Assembly (NCBI GenBank): GCA_963718665.1
Contig: OY970359.1
Span: 1,600,001-1,664,000 of the forward strand
Length of the DNA: 64,000 nt
DNA from: an uncultured Phycisphaerales bacterium
GTDB lineage: Bacteria > Planctomycetota > Phycisphaerae > Sedimentisphaerales > Anaerobacaceae
Direction: 5' to 3'
Below the pieces are notes generated by a model that had not been told where the DNA came from, made no database searches, and saw only the letters and a list, made by a program, of their open reading frames with translations. Every line of letters begins with the position of its first letter. The first letter of the stretch is position 1. A program made the position numbers and the translations under genes. Shown in pieces: positions 16,149 to 64,000 of the stretch.

Positions 16149-17120
16149 TCATCCACCGATATTTATCTTGCCCGCATTTTTTATCGAAATTTCCCGTTGC
16201 GGGAATGGTATTGTTATGCCGTTGTTTTCCAGGGTGGTTTTAAGTTTGGCGGTAGTGTCGAAGTAAACATCCCAGTAATCCGCTGATTTTACCCACGGGC
16301 GAACAACAAACTTTACGGAGCTGTCGGCAAGTTCCGAGACAGCAACCGTTGGGGCCGGGGTTTTGAGTATTCTTGCGTCAGCGGTGAGGACGCCTTCGAT
16401 GACCTGTTTGGCTTTTTTGATGTCGTCGCCATACGATACGCCAACCGTCAAATCGATTCTTCTTGTAGCGTTGGTGGTATAATTGCTGATAGTGCTTCCG
16501 GTTATCTGGGCGTTGGGAATTATGATGCGGACGTTGTCGAGGGAGTCGAGCACCGTATTGAGAATCTGAATTTCCCGAACTGTTCCCTGGATTCCTGCCA
16601 CTGTCACATAATCCCCGATTTTGAAGGGCTTGAAAATCACCATAAGTATGCCGGCGGCAAAATTAGACAGCGAACCCTGCAGGGCGAACGCGACCGCCAA
16701 TGCCGCGGCGCCGAGCACAGCGATTGCCGCCGTTAGCTTTATGCCAATCTGGTCAAGTGCCGCGATAATCACGAACGCAAGCAGGCCGAAGTAGCACAAA
16801 TGCTGCACGAAGGTAACAAGGATTTGCTCAACATGTGCCTTGGTCATTGCCTTGCCGACAAGCGTAGAAATCCACTTTGCCAGCCAGCGGCCGATTGCGA
16901 AGATAAGAATCGCTGCCAGAAGGTCAACAGCGAAAGCGGTCCCTTTTGTAATCAGGAAATTTTTTATTATTTCGGCTACATTTTGCGGCCCGGCCTTGGC
17001 GGCATCGGCGATGGTTTGAGCGGCGTTTACATCCTGTGCCATCACGGGGATAACGCTTACGAGCAGGATTACCAATATGACCAGGTAATAAATGCTCATC
17101 TTTTTGATTTGAAGTTTCAT
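16149..17120 (-). CDS. mscS: Small-conductance mechanosensitive channel
   Basis: AFALQGSLSNFAAG, KPFKIGD, IPFPQ. Confidence 0.92.
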   Translation of the reverse strand: MKLQIKKMSIYYLVILVILLVSVIPVMAQDVNAAQTIADAAKAGPQNVAEIIKNFLITKGTAFAVDLLAAILIFAIGRWLAKWISTLVGKAMTKAHVEQILVTFVQHLCYFGLLAFVIIAALDQIGIKLTAAIAVLGAAALAVAFALQGSLSNFAAGILMVIFKPFKIGDYVTVAGIQGTVREIQILNTVLDSLDNVRIIIPNAQITGSTISNYTTNATRRIDLTVGVSYGDDIKKAKQVIEGVLTADARILKTPAPTVAVSELADSSVKFVVRPWVKSADYWDVYFDTTAKLKTTLENNGITIPFPQREISIKNAGKINIGG

Positions 17121-28769: not shown

Positions 28770-29151
28770 GGGGACATTAAAAAACTGCCGCAACTTCAGT
28801 TTTTATAAGTAGTTACAAATCCGTGTCATCTGTGAAATCTGTGGTTGAGACCTTGTTTTTTGTGCATTTTTGTGGCCTAAAAACCACTCTTTTTTCGTGA
28901 CAATTTTTGCTGTAACCTCTTTCCTTATAACGGCTTAAATTCTGGATATGAACAGTCGTATAAAACAAATGTATCAAACAGTTGTATGATACAACTGTTA
29001 TCCATTTTCGCGCAAGTCGAAAACCCTTAGATTCAAAAATTTCAAAATTTTTTTACTCCTTACGCAGTAAGGACTTATCAATTTTGGCCCCATCAGGAAA
29101 TCCCTTAGTTTTCGTCAAAAGCGCGAAGTTCGCGCCATAGGATAGAGGGAC
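28770..29151 (+). promoter_or_regulatory. Conserved ~382-bp non-coding element, copy 1 (upstream of HNH-AP2 gene)
   Basis: Aligns by eye with 59643-60024 from GGGGACATTAAAAAA to TAGAGGGAC; function inferred. Confidence 0.8.
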
Positions 29152-29332
29152 CTTGTGGGTAACTCAGGCGGGCAGGCACAACTGATATTAAAAATCAAAA
29201 AGTAAAAGGCAAAAAGACAACGCAAAGCTCAAAAAGGTCTGTGCCGTTCGGCTGGCGAAAGTGTCTACCGAAATGTTTCCGCATTTTTGCTTTTTTATAT
29301 TTAATTTTTGATTTAAGAAGGGGGAGGATATT

Positions 29333-29935
29333 ATGGCAAGTATCACAATCAAAGTTCCAAACTGGTTAGACCGTATCTGCACCTGGCCTGTGATGTTTTA
29401 TCGCAGGCGTAAGTATGGTTACGACTTTCGCAGGATATACCTCGGCGAAGGGGAATGGACGATAGTTGACGCCGATGTCTATTATCGCCTCGGAAATATC
29501 AAATGGTGTTTAAAAGGGCACAAGACAAAACTATACGCCATTGGAGGCGTCAGGAACGAATGCGGAAAAGGAATAGAAATGGTACATTTGCACAGGAAGG
29601 TTGCCAATGCGCCAAAGGGGCAGATTGTTGACCATATAAACGGCGATTCCCTCGACAATCGAAGGGCCAATCTCCGTTTGGCAACACGGTCTCAAAATTG
29701 CCAGAATGCGAAAAAAAGAAAAAATACCTCATCGCGATTCATTGGCGTTAGTTTTCAGAAATCGCATAAAAAATGGTGGGCATATATTAGCTTTGAGAGA
29801 AAAAGAACGCATTTGGGCTATTTTGACAATGAAATCGAAGCTGCCCGCGCTTATGACGCAGCCGCCAGGAAGTATTACGGCGAATTCGCAAGGTTGAATT
29901 TTCCGGAGGAAAATTCACTATCCGCTACTCGCTGA
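29333..29935 (+). CDS. HNH endonuclease with C-terminal AP2 DNA-binding domain
   Basis: [17 protein letters not shown] (HNH_3); SSRFIGVS...WWAYI...[15 protein letters not shown]...NFP (AP2). Confidence 0.93.
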
Positions 29936-59492: not shown

Positions 59493-59518
59493 GGATTCCC
59501 GCCTGCGCGGGAATGACA
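59493..59518. repeat. dRS3-like palindromic repeat
   Basis: ATTCCC-GCCTGCGC-GGGAAT followed by GACA. Confidence 0.75.
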
Positions 59519-59642: not shown

Positions 59643-60024
59643 GGGGACATTAAAAAATGATGTAAGGCCAGTTTGTAGAAGTAGTTATAAACAATTGACT
59701 GTCCAAGAAGGGGGGCTTTTTGCACGGTTTTTTGGTCATTTTTGGGGCTGTTTTTTGAGTGTTTTTTAAGTCGCGTTTTTGCTGTAACCACTGCAAATAT
59801 AACTGTTTAAAATCTGGACACGAACAGTCGTATAAAACAAACGTATCAAACGCTTGTATCAAACACTTGTTATCCATTTTCGCGCAGGTCGAAAACCCTT
59901 AGATGGAAAAATTTCAAAAAATTTTATCTCCTTGTGGCACAAGGACTTATCGATTTTGGGCATATCAGGAAATCCCTTAGTTTTCGTCAAAAGCGCGCAA
60001 GTTTGCGCCATAGGGTAGAGGGAC
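59643..60024 (+). promoter_or_regulatory. Conserved ~382-bp non-coding element, copy 2 (upstream of phage head operon)
   Basis: Aligns with 28770-29151; same orientation relative to the downstream gene. Confidence 0.8.
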
Positions 60025-60104
60025 GCGTGAAGCGGTCGCCTCTGTAGTTTTGAGTTTTTAGTGTTTAGTTTTGAGTTGAGGAAGAAGAAAGCGATTGAGA
60101 TTGT

Positions 60105-60130
60105 GGATTCCTGCTTGCGCAGGAATGACA
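60105..60130. repeat. dRS3-like palindromic repeat, second copy
   Basis: ATTCCT-GCTTGCGC-AGGAAT followed by GACA. Confidence 0.7.
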
Positions 60131-60148: not shown

Positions 60149-61666
60149 ATGGGATTTGACGTGAAGATATTTGGGGACGGATTCGATGCGGAGTATCTGG
60201 AATGGTTAGTGGAGCAGCGTTGGCCACAGATACAGGTACACTTCGGGAAGATGTGGGAGTATTACGCGAACCCGATAATGGATTTACATAAGGGAGCTAA
60301 TCATTCCGTCGAGCAGAAGATCAATGAAAGCGGCAAGTGCTATGTTCAGGCGCAGGAGTATGGGCTGCCGGCGAGGATAACCGGACTGGCGCGGTGCGCG
60401 GAGGCGGGGGTGTATGGCGGGAGGCCAGTCGGGGACATACGCCGCAAAGAGGTGGTGATTGAGAATGATATAGCGTGGCGGGTAAACGCTGCTGTGGATT
60501 TTTTGTTTGGGAAACCAATAAGCGTGGTGTCCCGAGCCGCTGATGGCACGAAACGAGCAGAAATCGAAGGGATAATAAAGGCGGTTTTTTCGGCCAACGG
60601 CGGAATCGGGTTTTTGCAGGATATGGCGGTGCTCGGGGGCGTCTATGGGTTCGTCGATTGTATGGTCAGGCCTGGCCGGGAAATCTACGAGCGCATTTCG
60701 GACACTCCTTCAAACCTCAACTGCGAGGTTGTGCTTGAATTGGCACGCGCAATCGGGTTAGAGCTGATAGAGGCGCCTCGGGCACTGCCTGTTCTTGATG
60801 AGAATGATTATCGAAAAGTGGTTTACTATGTTCAGCATTTTCGGCAGGTGAAGAATCAACTGACGGGCGGCGGGGTGTTGCAGCGGCTGTTTGGGCAGGA
60901 GGGGGACAAACGCAGAGTTGTGAGCGTGACGGAGATAACGTCGGCGGAGGCGTGGCAGAGGTATGAGAACAAGGAGCTTGTGGCAGAGGGGAAATTGCCC
61001 TGGGGATTTTTGCCTGTGGTTCACATTCAGAATCTGGCTCAGCCATTTTACTACGAGGGACAGAGCGACGTTGAGCCGTTGATGCCGATACAGGACGAGT
61101 TGAACACGAGGTTATCTGACAGGGCCAGCCGGATAACGATGCAGTCGTTCAAGATGTACCTTGGCAAGGGGATAGAGGGTTTCGCGGAGAAGCCCGTGTC
61201 GCCGGGAGTGATGTGGCATACGGATAATCCGGACGCGGCGATAGAGGAGTTCGGGGGTGACGAGGACCATCCGAGCGAGAGCGCGCACATAGAAGAGATG
61301 CGCGAGGCGATGGATAAAATCAGCGGAATGACGCCTTTGGTGGCGGGGGTGATTCGCACGAAGCTGGGGAATCTGACGAGCGCGGTTGCGCTTAGGTTGA
61401 CGATGATGGGGATGCTGTCAAAAACGGAGCGCAAGAGATTTACATACGGCGAGGGGCTTAAGAGGATTGTGGAGATGGTCCTGGAGATTTTGGACAAGGC
61501 GAACATCTACAAGACAAGTGAGCAGGACAGGGACGTTGAGGTAATTTTCCCGGACCCGCTGCCTGAGAATGAGATGGAAAAGCTTGATGAGGCAAAGGCG
61601 AAGAAAGAGCTTGGCGTGCCTATTGAGCGAGTGTTGAAAGAGCTTGGGTATGAAACAGTTGTGTAA
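60149..61666 (+). CDS. Phage portal protein (SPP1 gp6-like)
   Basis: VNAAVDFLFGKP, FLPVVHIQN, GQSDVEPLMPIQDELN, TSAVALR, VIFPDPLP; RBS before ATG 60149. Confidence 0.85.
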   Translation: MGFDVKIFGDGFDAEYLEWLVEQRWPQIQVHFGKMWEYYANPIMDLHKGANHSVEQKINESGKCYVQAQEYGLPARITGLARCAEAGVYGGRPVGDIRRKEVVIENDIAWRVNAAVDFLFGKPISVVSRAADGTKRAEIEGIIKAVFSANGGIGFLQDMAVLGGVYGFVDCMVRPGREIYERISDTPSNLNCEVVLELARAIGLELIEAPRALPVLDENDYRKVVYYVQHFRQVKNQLTGGGVLQRLFGQEGDKRRVVSVTEITSAEAWQRYENKELVAEGKLPWGFLPVVHIQNLAQPFYYEGQSDVEPLMPIQDELNTRLSDRASRITMQSFKMYLGKGIEGFAEKPVSPGVMWHTDNPDAAIEEFGGDEDHPSESAHIEEMREAMDKISGMTPLVAGVIRTKLGNLTSAVALRLTMMGMLSKTERKRFTYGEGLKRIVEMVLEILDKANIYKTSEQDRDVEVIFPDPLPENEMEKLDEAKAKKELGVPIERVLKELGYETVV

Positions 61667-61714
61667 AAAAGGCAAAAGGAAAAAATAAAAAGGTAAAAGT
61701 TAAAAGGAGGAAGT

Positions 61715-62233
61715 ATGAGTCAAGTTGACGAAGGGGTACTGCCAGGGGCAGAAGAGGGACAAGGCGAGGTTGATGACGTGAAATTTGTTCCTGTGGGTGA
61801 ATCGATAAGGTATCGCAGGCGGGCACAGGGCGCTGAGAAACGGGTTGAGGAGCTTGCGGGAGAGCTGGTTGAGGCGAAAACTGAGGCGACGAGGTTGGCT
61901 GATGAGCTTAAGGCGACGCAGCAGGAACAGGAATTGATGAGACGGCTGGCTTCGGAGGGGACACGTGATTTGGAGGCGGCGATGCTGATAGCTAAGTCAC
62001 GATTAGCCGGGACAGATAAGGCAGATTTGAATGACGTTGTGGAGCAGTTGAAGAAGGAGAAGCAGTATCTGTTTGGCGAAAAGACGTCGGGGAGTGTGGC
62101 TGTGAGGACATCGCCGGCGAAAGAGCAGAGAAGTGGAGCCGGAGCGCTCGAGCGGTCGGCCAAGAGGGCCGCGGGGACAGGCAGCAGGAGTGATTTGCAG
62201 GAGTATATGAGAAAACGGAGAAGCATTGTTTAA
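61715..62233 (+). CDS. Putative capsid scaffolding protein
   Basis: Acidic N-terminus, coiled coil, LKKEKQYLF, basic C-terminus; lies between portal and capsid. Confidence 0.7.
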   Translation: MSQVDEGVLPGAEEGQGEVDDVKFVPVGESIRYRRRAQGAEKRVEELAGELVEAKTEATRLADELKATQQEQELMRRLASEGTRDLEAAMLIAKSRLAGTDKADLNDVVEQLKKEKQYLFGEKTSGSVAVRTSPAKEQRSGAGALERSAKRAAGTGSRSDLQEYMRKRRSIV

Positions 62234-62330
62234 CTGTTGTTGAAATGAAATGTTCATAGTTTGTTGTTCGTAGTTTATTGCAATGAACAATGAACACAGA
62301 ACACCGGACAATTAGGAAGGAGACAAACAC

Positions 62331-63485
62331 ATGGCATTTACAGGAAAAGCGACGTATTCGGCAGGGACGAGTTTGCCGGAATTGGCGGAAGATGTGGCGG
62401 ATTTAATCGGGATAGTATCGCCTTATGAGACGCCATTGCTGGACGCATTAGGCGACCCATTGAGAGAGGCGACAAGCATACATCACGAGTGGCTGGAAGA
62501 TGAGTTGCTACCGAACAAGGACGCGGTGAACGATAGCACGTTTACGGACCCGGATATTGACACGCAATTTGTGGTTGATAACGGGAGCAGGTTCAGGGTT
62601 GGCGACCAGATACAAATTGAGGGAAGCCGAGAACTGATGCTGGTTGTCGGAGTGAACGGCAACACGCTGACGGTGACTCGCGGGTACGGTGGAACATTGC
62701 CCGATAATCTGGCTGACAACCAGGTAATCAACATCCTGGGCAACGCGGCATTGGAAGGTGATGACAAGCCGGGGACAAGGTTTACCAATCGCAGCAGGCG
62801 AGGCAACTATACGCAGATATTCACAGCGACGGTTGAGGTGTCGGGGACGGATATTGCGGCAAGTCATCTTGGACTGGCAGATGAGATGGATTATCAGAAG
62901 CAGGAGCGGTTGCGTGAGCTTATTCGAGACCTTGAGAACACGGTCATCAACGGAGGTCAGCCGACGAGCAGTCCGCAGGGCGGGGACACAGCGAGACGGA
63001 CAATGAAGGGTGTTGTGCAGCATCTTGCGACGAACGTGTTCCGAACAGGCGACAGCGGATTCCCGATGGGAGCGGACCTTGATGAGGCGAAGATTAACTA
63101 CGCGCTTAGGGAAATCTGGGCGAGCAGCAGCGGGAATGTTGACCTGATAGTCGTGGGCGGTTTTCAGAAGCGGAAGATAAACAGTTTTGTGTCGAGCAGC
63201 AGGAGTTACGCGGCAGGGGACACGAAGTTTACCGACCTGGTGAACGTCTATGAGAGCGATTTCGGCGTCTGCCGGATAGTGACGACGCGCTGGCTGCCGC
63301 AGGATACGGTTCTGCTTCTGGATTCGTCGCGGATAGCGGTATTGCCCTTGGCGGGGAGGAGTTTCTACTTCAAACCATTGGCAAGCAGCGGCGATTATGA
63401 ATGCGGGGAGCTGATAGGCGAATACACGGTGGAGCTGAAGAACGAGGCGGCACACGGGATAATTCGAGGACTTAGCGTTAGTTAG
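62331..63485 (+). CDS. Major capsid protein (DUF5309/SU10-like, HK97 fold) with inserted beta domain
   Basis: SPYETPLL, HEWLEDEL, NYTQIF...VSGT, YESDFG, GEYTVELKNEAAHG. Confidence 0.85.
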   Translation: MAFTGKATYSAGTSLPELAEDVADLIGIVSPYETPLLDALGDPLREATSIHHEWLEDELLPNKDAVNDSTFTDPDIDTQFVVDNGSRFRVGDQIQIEGSRELMLVVGVNGNTLTVTRGYGGTLPDNLADNQVINILGNAALEGDDKPGTRFTNRSRRGNYTQIFTATVEVSGTDIAASHLGLADEMDYQKQERLRELIRDLENTVINGGQPTSSPQGGDTARRTMKGVVQHLATNVFRTGDSGFPMGADLDEAKINYALREIWASSSGNVDLIVVGGFQKRKINSFVSSSRSYAAGDTKFTDLVNVYESDFGVCRIVTTRWLPQDTVLLLDSSRIAVLPLAGRSFYFKPLASSGDYECGELIGEYTVELKNEAAHGIIRGLSVS

Positions 63486-63565
63486 CGTTTAGCGGGCAGC
63501 GGATAGCGTATAGGAAACTACCTAACACTATCCGCAAGGCCCGCAGCTAAAGAAGGGAGTGAAAT

Positions 63566-64000
63566 ATGGTCAGGTTGTGTGATGACAGAGACATTTTGAA
63601 GATTGAGCCGGCGTTGTTCGGGGAATTGTATCCTGCTAACCAGGTTATCGCGGCGGGAACGGCAGGTGTGCTTGTTGGGACGACATTTGAGGCGAGTGGG
63701 GCGAATTTTGTGTCGGCTGGGGTCGAGGCGGGAGATTGTGTTTATCTGAGGTCGGCGGACGGAGTTCTCGACGGCGTGTATGAGATTGCGGCGGTGGATT
63801 CAGCGATGCAGTTGTGTGTGTCGGTTTTGCGGGTAGATTCGGAGGCAGACCCGATAGCTCCGCCGACAGTGAGTGATATTTCTTATCGGATAAGCACATT
63901 CAAGCCACAAATTGCGGATGTGAGCTTGAGGTTGATGGAATACCTGTGGATTAAGCCGGGGCAGGTAATCGGAGATGTTTCGGTGGATGAGATTCTCGAT
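63566..64000 (+). CDS. Putative virion structural / head-completion protein, 3' end off window
   Basis: GAAGGGAG RBS; open frame MVRLCDDRDILKIEPALF... for 145 codons to the edge; not in the ORF track. Confidence 0.7.
   Translation, partial: MVRLCDDRDILKIEPALFGELYPANQVIAAGTAGVLVGTTFEASGANFVSAGVEAGDCVYLRSADGVLDGVYEIAAVDSAMQLCVSVLRVDSEADPIAPPTVSDISYRISTFKPQIADVSLRLMEYLWIKPGQVIGDVSVDEILD

Follow-up and report, generated by a model that had tools for sequence, protein, structure and literature searches.

Phage-type head and packaging genes at two distant chromosomal loci in the Phycisphaerae: an anciently fixed candidate for a gene transfer agent-like particle system

The window analysed here is a stretch of 64,000 nucleotides (G000:C1:1600001-1664000) from an uncultured Sedimentisphaerales bacterium (Planctomycetota, Phycisphaerae), whose genome, G000, is a single contig of 2.61 Mb. 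Near its right end begins a cluster of 12 co-directional genes, termed here locus A, which spans 9.7 kb and encodes a portal, a scaffold and a major capsid protein of phage type together with a putative adaptor, a putative tail tip and two candidate envelope proteins. The cluster runs past the window for 5.8 kb and ends among host genes at L001:14818; the region past the window was read from the 20-kb piece L001 (window position = L001 position + 55000). A packaging operon with the only recognizable terminase of the genome, locus B, lies 687 kb from the head genes. Below we describe both loci, follow their descent in the class, and argue, with slightly more confidence than doubt, that together they form a particle system of phage origin, long fixed in the chromosomes of the Phycisphaerae and most likely similar to a gene transfer agent (GTA). 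G and L numbers denote analysed genomes and loci, and f numbers are family codes. The genes of locus A are as follows.

60149 to 61666, plus strand: g1, portal protein (SPP1 Gp6-like); PF05133 2.1e-16, 60.4 bits (cut-off 25.5); phrog_64 5.6e-24
61715 to 62233, plus strand: g2, head scaffold; PF06810 1.6e-7, 31.9 bits (below the 35-bit cut-off); phrog_194 1.3e-6
62331 to 63485, plus strand: g3, major capsid protein of SU10 type (HK97-fold family); PF17236 SU10_MCP 7.7e-85; phrog_1328 1e-75
63566 to 64222 (= L001:9222, past the end of the window), plus strand: g4, 218 aa, modelled as a head-to-tail adaptor with an inserted beta-barrel
L001:9247-9615, plus strand: g5
L001:9612-10397, plus strand: g6
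L001:10410-10850, plus strand: g7
L001:10872-12053, plus strand: g8, right-handed beta-helix spike; PF13229
L001:12053-12736, plus strand: g9
L001:12733-13800, plus strand: g10, possible tail hub, a model-based lead
L001:13801/13846-14100, plus strand: g11, transmembrane segment and coiled coil, as read from the sequence
L001:14174/14207-14818, plus strand: g12, lipoprotein, as read from the sequence

The identities of the first three genes rest on profile matches. For the capsid protein the alignment to PF17236, which we take to be the former DUF5309, reaches 285.4 bits (cut-off 24.1), covers profile positions 11-291 of 292 and is the only Pfam match. The open reading frame (ORF) of g1 was listed from a TTG at 60095, the likely start being the ATG at 60149, which is preceded by a ribosome-binding site; portal orthologues of about 510 aa are found in 64 loci, and the scaffold gene lies between portal and capsid in 77. 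Shine-Dalgarno-like sequences stand ahead of all four starts within the window (AAAGGGGAAGTGAAATG, AAAGGAGGAAGTATG, AGGAAGGAGACAAACACATG and AAGAAGGGAGTGAAATATG). A first-pass annotation of the window had described a portal, a scaffold, a DUF5309-like capsid and a fourth structural-looking gene, all with intact frames and good ribosome-binding sites, and this description is borne out. The order of the cluster is colinear in all 80 related loci, and where the downstream flank extends to 9 kb or more (44 loci), the long form is present in 42 and the short form in two. A stop-free antisense frame of 315 aa runs across the capsid gene (62508-63455, minus strand), with similar frames over the capsid regions of four relatives; the G richness of the coding strand is the probable cause.

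Beyond the capsid gene the assignments are less direct, as g4, g5, g6, g7, g9, g10 and g12 could not be placed in any family of Pfam, PHROGs or NCBIfam, and profile searches of the PDB with g4, g6, g10 and g12 returned no useful E-value. The AlphaFold (AF2) model of g4 (pLDDT 91) aligns over residues 1-218 with phage neck and adaptor chains at VIA-align Z scores of 5-7.3, below the level advised for trust; the matches include those to Mu (5ydn and 9khx), JBD30 (8rka), GP4 (8jov) and the SU10 tail (7z47_A, Z 5.1), and a Foldseek search of the same model against the PDB gave nothing at E <= 0.001. With moderate confidence, we take g4 to be a putative portal-binding head-tail adaptor. The model of g10 is of low confidence (pLDDT 54.8), and its 26 top VIA rows are nearly all baseplate-hub, gp27, Mu gp44 or Tal chains (Z 7.8-11.4); together with the Atlas leads YQBQ and Prophage_tail this gives a lead toward a gp27/Tal-like hub. 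The spike gene g8 is only 47-53% identical between relatives whose neighbouring genes are 76-86% identical, and longer orthologues of g7 and g9 carry beta-helix and ConA-like lectin domains (Beta_helix, Laminin_G_3). No tube, sheath or tape-measure gene was recognized among the genes of the cluster.

The last two genes may act at the cell envelope. The g11 product (84-99 aa) has a single N-terminal membrane helix followed by a coiled coil, and in g12 a signal peptide and a lipobox cysteine are accompanied by a hydrophobic segment rich in Gly, the mature part having about 175 residues. A spanin-type match for these proteins is weak (phrog_739, 0.0034), and a predicted complex of mature g12 with the g11 coiled coil scored 0.00, below the mark, in a run made without controls; o-spanins are also far shorter than mature g12. 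The two are perhaps a spanin-like pair. In several relatives, and not in G000, variable ORFs of 290-333 aa without a family match lie between g11 and g12:

L016:14254-15126, ORF inserted between g11 and g12
L018:13754-15667, the same
L017:9390-10388, minus strand, the same
L029:15436-16353, the same

A whole-genome search with six Pfam terminase families gave a single hit, to PF17289; PF03237, PF03354, PF04466, PF05876 and PF20441 had no hit in the 2.61-Mb genome. This hit defines locus B.

G000:C1:975256-984635 (L031:10253-19635), minus strand: packaging locus B, 687 kb from the head genes
975256-976821, minus strand: TerL, 522-aa ORF; PF17289 32.5-35.6 bits (cut-off 22.6); phrog_2 1.8e-20 over residues 112-510

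By its sequence motifs, the 522-aa ORF is a large terminase with intact catalytic motifs: the Walker A (GGxKT) and Walker B (CDE) motifs, a four-cysteine cluster and the acidic nuclease residues show no change across 41 genomes, or a single exception at most. Upstream of it, on the same strand, are rpiB, a small ORF, a TerS-like ORF (phrog_2538, 3.2e-7) and a ParB_N protein, and further toward the start of the locus an inserted restriction-modification methylase, an SPL-like gene, a GNAT-like protein, an ABC-type ATPase and a helix-turn-helix (HTH) protein resembling sigma-70 region 4. In 18 loci of six families the genes follow one another as HTH-ATPase-GNAT-(ParB_N)-TerS-(rpiB)-TerL, with one or two of them lacking in some loci. 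Locus B is contiguous in f2, f3 and f6, and the housekeeping gene rpiB stands between TerS and TerL in f1 and f8 and not in f2, f3 or f6; counted from coordinates, 27 of 34 genomes have the ATPase and TerL on one contig less than 10 kb apart. The Eco57I-like methylase and the SPL-like radical-SAM gene are found inside locus B in G000 and G006 only. PADLOC reported no system-level defence match, the ATPase of locus B matching generic ABC-type models only (mad3, 1.1e-14).

In other families the two loci are joined. TerL lies directly beside the portal in G117 (f14), G048 (f16) and G228, the order in G117 being TerL, a 67-aa ORF, portal, capsid and g4, and in G132 (f21) a ParB_N gene, a TerS-sized ORF and TerL stand 6 kb before the portal. 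Comparison of these gene orders demonstrates the common descent of loci A and B and points to TerL next to the portal as the ancestral layout. Since the loci are 687 kb apart in G000, one particle could not carry the whole system. The split over several loci that the first-pass annotation had noted for gene transfer agents such as RcGTA is thereby confirmed here.

The distribution of both genes was surveyed in 201 genomes of the class, each at least 90% complete, and in 41 relatives of G000, including 23 congeners. The capsid gene is single-copy in 117 of the class genomes, full-length in most, and a strong TerL match (E <= 1e-30) is present in 125: both occur in 113 genomes, the capsid only in four, TerL only in 12 and neither in 72. 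By family code the two are both near-universal or both absent (for the capsid and then any TerL match: 20/21 and 21/21 in f7, 11/11 and 11/11 in f19, 0/8 and 0/8 in f20, 0/11 and 0/11 in f23). Of the 41 relatives, 27 have one copy of the capsid gene and 40 have TerL. Overall, at least 564 species-level records hold the capsid. In a sample of 251 genomes of the phylum, 12 from outside the class have a match at E <= 1e-20, six of them under one family code.

Host phylogeny was represented by family codes and dxs identity, and not by a multi-marker host tree. The capsid tree (48 rows) and the TerL tree (42 rows) were both made by a quick method (LG+G4), because of which their deep branches are weakly supported; and since the genomes compared share ancestry with one another, significance is overstated by the contingency and shuffle statistics given here. 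The capsid tree requires 20 changes of family label (minimum 17; shuffled mean 33.9; none of 200 shuffles as low) and the TerL tree 15 (minimum 15; shuffled mean 28.2; none of 200 as low). The order forms a clade in the capsid tree (SH-aLRT 99), with the out-of-class sequences basal. Patristic distances of capsid and TerL are correlated in the Mantel test (r 0.82, 41 genomes), and the correlation persists with one genome per family (r 0.64, 15 genomes); in neither case did any of 2000 permutations reach as high a value. Identity to G000 drops with taxonomic rank from 96 to 57% for the capsid, from 94 to 51% for TerL and from 96 to 50% for dxs, and the capsid is conserved at least as well as dxs in 24 of 25 genomes (in G039, 80% versus 59%).

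Within the genus, locus A occupies the same chromosomal slot, with DinG upstream and DUF3788 or a response regulator downstream. All 12 genes are intact, with dN/dS of 0.07-0.33 (NG86, G000 versus five congeners); the lowest values belong to the capsid (0.07-0.11) and the portal (0.10-0.13), followed in the head module by the scaffold (0.16-0.23), and the highest to g9 and g10. For comparison, DinG gives 0.08-0.11 and the response regulator 0.07-0.13. In the same genome pairs, dS is 0.44-0.48 for the portal and 0.43-0.57 for DinG. Judged from gene trees and substitution patterns, both loci are inherited vertically, and the genes of locus A are maintained by purifying selection. The claim of a long-resident, domesticated system thus gained support from the grouping of the trees by host family, the covariation of capsid and TerL, and the dN/dS values. 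Two outcomes named in advance as contrary to that claim did not appear: the region downstream holds no complete prophage, the cluster ending after 12 genes at host genes, and none of the genes of the cluster is a pseudogene. A third, a patchy distribution at odds with host phylogeny, did not appear either, the capsid tree grouping by host family; at the fine scale of the genus the distribution is patchy, 11 of the 23 congeners having no cluster.

We consider it very probable that the element is domesticated and kept by its host. That it works as a GTA-like particle for DNA transfer is a more even matter, on which we lean slightly to the affirmative. Under such a reading, locus A would supply the portal, scaffold, capsid, adaptor (g4), a short tail tip (g5-g10; in relatives also including the lectin-domain proteins) and two envelope proteins (g11 and g12), and locus B would supply the HTH protein, the ATPase, the GNAT-like and ParB_N proteins, TerS and TerL. 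Procapsids would assemble on the portal with the help of the scaffold under host control, and TerS and TerL would pump in DNA, most likely in the manner of gene transfer agents, by headful packaging of host DNA. The adaptor would then close the portal, and the tail tip would be added where present. Particles may leave the cell by lysis, perhaps with g11 and g12 as a spanin-like pair, and the variable spike may bind surface glycans of kin cells. Hints to regulation and delivery come from the sigma-70-region-4-like HTH gene that heads locus B, from a conserved element upstream of the portal described below, and from the variable spike and lectin domains.

Several observations weigh against a GTA-like particle. 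The capsid is absent from 11 of 23 congeners, and in all four head-less congeners examined (G020, G007, G019 and G002) the slot between DinG and DUF3788 is filled by other genes, so that the head locus behaves like a variable island. A six-gene, tail-less form, portal-scaffold-capsid-g4-g11-g12, occurs in G017 and L034 of the same genus and in f2, f7 and f8; with such forms, delivery of DNA to recipients fits poorly. Searched with a g10 profile, G017 and the complete f8 genomes G037, G152 and G031 gave no match, and G038 gave no more than a distant one, 209 kb away from its head genes. Locus B is intact in the head-less genomes G019 and G020, and the three head-less genomes nearest to G000 by dxs (95% identity) retain TerL; the persistence of locus B in head-less genomes, together with the 12 class genomes having TerL only, suggests that it may serve a separate function. 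Neither an endolysin nor a holin was identified. In a strand-symmetric tetranucleotide test (distance from the genome mean, 268 windows) the cluster stands at the 98.9th percentile and its flanks at the 53rd and 65th. The visual impression of a host-like composition is therefore true of the GC skew, which is like that of neighbouring genes, and not of the tetranucleotides; locus B is typical (52nd percentile), and GC content is 52.3% in the cluster versus 49.2% in the genome. Of the 11 head-less congeners, two show an in-frame stop in TerL and one gave no TerL match; none of the 12 head-bearing ones shows a stop, the numbers being small.

The relation to present-day phages was examined through the capsid. 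The best cultured phage capsid (Sporosarcina phage Lietuvens) is 31% identical, and capsids of ordinary IMG/VR phage contigs are at most 40% identical. Three IMG/VR contigs reach 65-80% identity; one of them (L124) is a host fragment with the whole cluster, and the other two are phage genomes, each with its own TerL and portal: G466 (62,460 bp, terminal repeats, CheckV 100% complete) and G467 (41,165 bp, terminal repeats). Both carry a lone host-type capsid gene.

L122:5970-7124, host-type capsid gene of phage genome G466; 69% identical to the G000 capsid
L123:7023-8183, host-type capsid gene of phage genome G467; 65% identical to the G000 capsid and 80% to the f9 host copy (G127)

The G466 copy follows the early genes for DnaB, a replication initiator and RuvC, and the G467 copy lies between an exonuclease and a resolvase gene, near RecT and methylases. 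G467 has its own, unrelated major head protein (phrog_334, 2.9e-68), and the structural module of G466 gave no PHROG capsid match. In the tree the phage-borne copies nest within host clades, that of G467 in f9 (SH-aLRT 97) and that of G466 in the Sedimentisphaerales (SH-aLRT 99). Their GC content is close to that of the phages (0.46 versus 0.44 and 0.60 versus 0.58), and they show dN of 0.15-0.23 with saturated dS. We read them as two captures of the host capsid gene by phages, apparently kept under selection; a decoy or hijack role for them is speculation. Two further IMG/VR pattern scans gave no more close copies, so that three scans yielded only these two phages.

These captures lend themselves to a different account, in which the element is a class-wide machine made of a capsid and a DNA pump, whose tail-less core would consist of portal, scaffold, capsid, adaptor, the membrane coiled-coil protein and the lipoprotein, together with the separate operon for regulator, ATPase, GNAT-like and ParB proteins, TerS and TerL, and whose capsid gene phages repeatedly steal as an early-expressed decoy. 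We regard this account as unlikely, and as similarly unlikely the role that would follow from it, namely a part in phage-host conflict or a membrane-docked DNA-handling organelle, and not a classical GTA. In its phage-conflict version, to which we also give a small share of belief, capsid and terminase would package or sequester invading DNA or take part in an abortive response, and phages would answer with decoy capsids. The lone host-type capsids among early genes of two phage genomes, and their host derivation and maintenance (host clades, matching GC, dN of 0.15-0.23), agree with such a conflict, as do the presence or absence of the head locus as an island within the genus and the restriction-modification genes beside and inside locus B. 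However, two phages in three scans are few, they could use the capsid to other ends such as hijacking host particles, and PADLOC found no system-level match. Moreover, class-wide vertical descent and a slowly evolving capsid are unlike the usual turnover of defence systems, and a tail tip with variable receptor-binding proteins has no obvious intracellular use.

Persistence of the tail-less six-gene forms under selection could also be explained if the capsid were a DNA-free, encapsulin-like protein compartment and the distant TerL were functionally unrelated to it; the four class genomes with a capsid and no TerL match, the 12 with TerL and no capsid, and the intact locus B of head-less genomes would be compatible with this. 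We think it very improbable, since portal and adaptor, whose known role is to form and close a DNA channel, are kept in every form, several families have TerL adjoining the portal, a TerL orthologue accompanies the capsid in 113 of the 117 genomes that bear it, the capsid and TerL trees mirror each other, and no cargo-like gene was recognized. Identity with an encapsulin proper was rejected on the same grounds, namely portal and adaptor in all forms and a co-inherited TerL. Least probable of all, and hardly credible in our opinion, is the view that the cluster is left over from a prophage, defective or in decay, or is an integrated satellite resembling the capsid-forming phage-inducible chromosomal islands (PICIs), with no function for the host. 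Its appeal lies in the restriction of the cluster to phage structural genes with no replication genes, in its absence from 11 of 23 congeners, in its atypical tetranucleotide make-up, and in the split or partial capsid matches of some class genomes (e.g., G163, G221, G217, G228 and G054), several of them at contig ends. A remnant would not be expected to keep 12 intact ORFs with dN/dS of 0.07-0.33 and a colinear order in 80 of 80 loci, nor a single-copy, mostly full-length capsid in 117 class genomes and at least 564 species-level records. Constant chromosomal flanks across the genus, the lack of an integrase or tRNA (att sites were not sought beyond that) and the co-divergence of capsid with the unlinked TerL locus likewise speak against it. 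A functional temperate prophage was rejected because no integrase, replication, lysogeny or lysis-enzyme gene lies in the 20 kb around the cluster and the terminase is 687 kb off. Among the readings compared, that of a GTA-like particle system is the one we prefer.

The surroundings of locus A are those of a host chromosome. Upstream of the portal lie dxs, nadK, genes for a TPR protein and a DinG-like helicase, and a Kdo/WaaP-family kinase gene on the minus strand; downstream of g12 are DUF3788, a split alpha-galactosidase, a DHH phosphoesterase, a PEP-CTERM protein and the response regulator. The alpha-galactosidase (Melibiase_2) is found in two ORFs on the minus strand (L001:15462-16301 and 16365-16793) and is probably a pseudogene. 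There is no tRNA or tmRNA and no Rfam match in the 20 kb around the cluster, and none of the 25 ORFs scanned there belongs to an integrase, replication or terminase family; of mobile-element marks, an integrase and a tRNA are missing, att sites not having been sought beyond that. This agrees with the original observation that the head genes follow core genes, with no terminase before the portal and no integrase or tRNA.

The spacers of locus A are occupied by short tandem repeats, sought with TRF at a score of 30.

61666 to 61708: period-7 array (AAAAAGG-like) in the portal-scaffold spacer, by TRF
62251 to 62296: period-14 and period-7 arrays in the scaffold-capsid spacer, by TRF
63481 to 63513: heptamer-phased repeat, xxTAGCG four times, in the capsid-g4 spacer, seen by eye and not listed by TRF
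L001:14819-14870: period-7 array after the cluster

Period 7 is the commonest class of tandem repeat genome-wide (339 of 1334 TRF arrays), and for this reason the earlier label of host heptamers is a fair one; the repeats it had placed in the three spacers were recovered, two by TRF and the third by eye. The period-7 arrays occupy intergenic spacers, and their unit sequence differs from site to site. A REP-like hairpin, TTCCYGCYTGCGCRGGAA, has seven copies in the genome, two of which flank the portal leader (59494-59517 and 60107-60130).

Between these two hairpins lies the conserved element mentioned above, which recurs elsewhere in the window.

59937 to 60032, plus strand: conserved element of about 90 nt with the palindrome GCGCAA-GT-TTGCGC, some 115-210 nt before the portal ATG
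29067 to 29159: further copy of the element; the gene after it is at 29333-29935

It was recognized as a conserved block in an alignment of 12 portal-upstream regions, and nhmmer found it before the portal in 19 locus hits representing 14 distinct genomes, including G026 of f3. G000 has 11 copies, one ahead of the portal; of the other ten, eight precede an ORF of about 195-220 aa or longer with an N-terminal pattern shared by eye, one precedes a 121-aa HNH-like remnant and one has no such ORF. The one ORF of this dispersed family that was scanned matches HNH_3 and AP2 (PF13392 1.9e-10; PF00847 2.1e-8). Thus the head operon shares a 5' element with a dispersed HNH-AP2 family, and the element is, from its position and conservation, a candidate promoter or operator of the head operon. 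It had no hit in the locus B loci, and no 9- to 11-mer is common to at least 60% of both the portal-upstream and the locus B-upstream sets. The RNA fold of the portal leader has a z score of 0.18, and a structured-RNA reading is unsupported. With regard to expression, the 20 sequencing runs listed were all DNA metagenomes and none was RNA; two of them hold at least half of the sampled words.

The known systems closest to the element include domesticated particles, tailed phages and phage satellites. Like RcGTA, the alphaproteobacterial viriform of Rhodobacter capsulatus (Rhodogtaviriformidae), it has phage-derived head and tail genes without integrase or replication genes, is chromosomally fixed and vertically inherited over a large clade under purifying selection, has its parts at more than one locus and is lost in many sublineages. 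Unlike RcGTA, it would represent an independent domestication in another phylum. Its capsid is of SU10 type, whereas that of RcGTA belongs to another Pfam family; TerS and TerL are in this order detached from the head cluster, whereas the RcGTA terminase heads the main cluster; and the element has a putative short tail tip, no recognized tube or tape-measure gene, and tail-less variants. Like VSH-1/BhGTA of Brachyspira it is a domesticated locus for a phage-like particle, with neither terminase nor integrase next to it, the host phylum and capsid family being different. Tailed phages with SU10-type capsids (Escherichia phage SU10, Sporosarcina phage Lietuvens) have the same PF17236 capsid and, with g4 taken as the adaptor, the order portal-scaffold-capsid-adaptor; the element differs from them in having no replication, lysis-enzyme or integration genes, in being inherited with the host, and in a capsid at most 40% identical to theirs. 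Capsid-forming PICIs and other satellites also combine a small capsid gene set with the lack of a full phage genome, but they are mobile and helper-dependent, with integrase and att sites; the element shows no such marks, and it encodes TerS and TerL itself.

The gene transfer agents known so far go back to a few separate domestication events, most of them in Proteobacteria and spirochaetes. Literature searches combining Sedimentisphaerales, Phycisphaerae or Planctomycetota with gene transfer agents, capsid or terminase found no description of the element, which is probably an undescribed GTA-like particle. One article concerns a GTA of Rhodobacteraceae (PMC13055281).

If the proposed reading is true, the element adds to the gene transfer agents a domestication that spans a whole class of Planctomycetota. 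The Phycisphaerae that carry it are abundant in sediment, peat and soil. In some families the terminase adjoins the portal, in others it lies as far as 687 kb from it; this range of positions records a history of dispersal of a once compact gene set, and the natural tail-less variants bear on what the core function of the particle may be. Finally, the host-type capsid copies borne by phages suggest an arms race around a domesticated virus.

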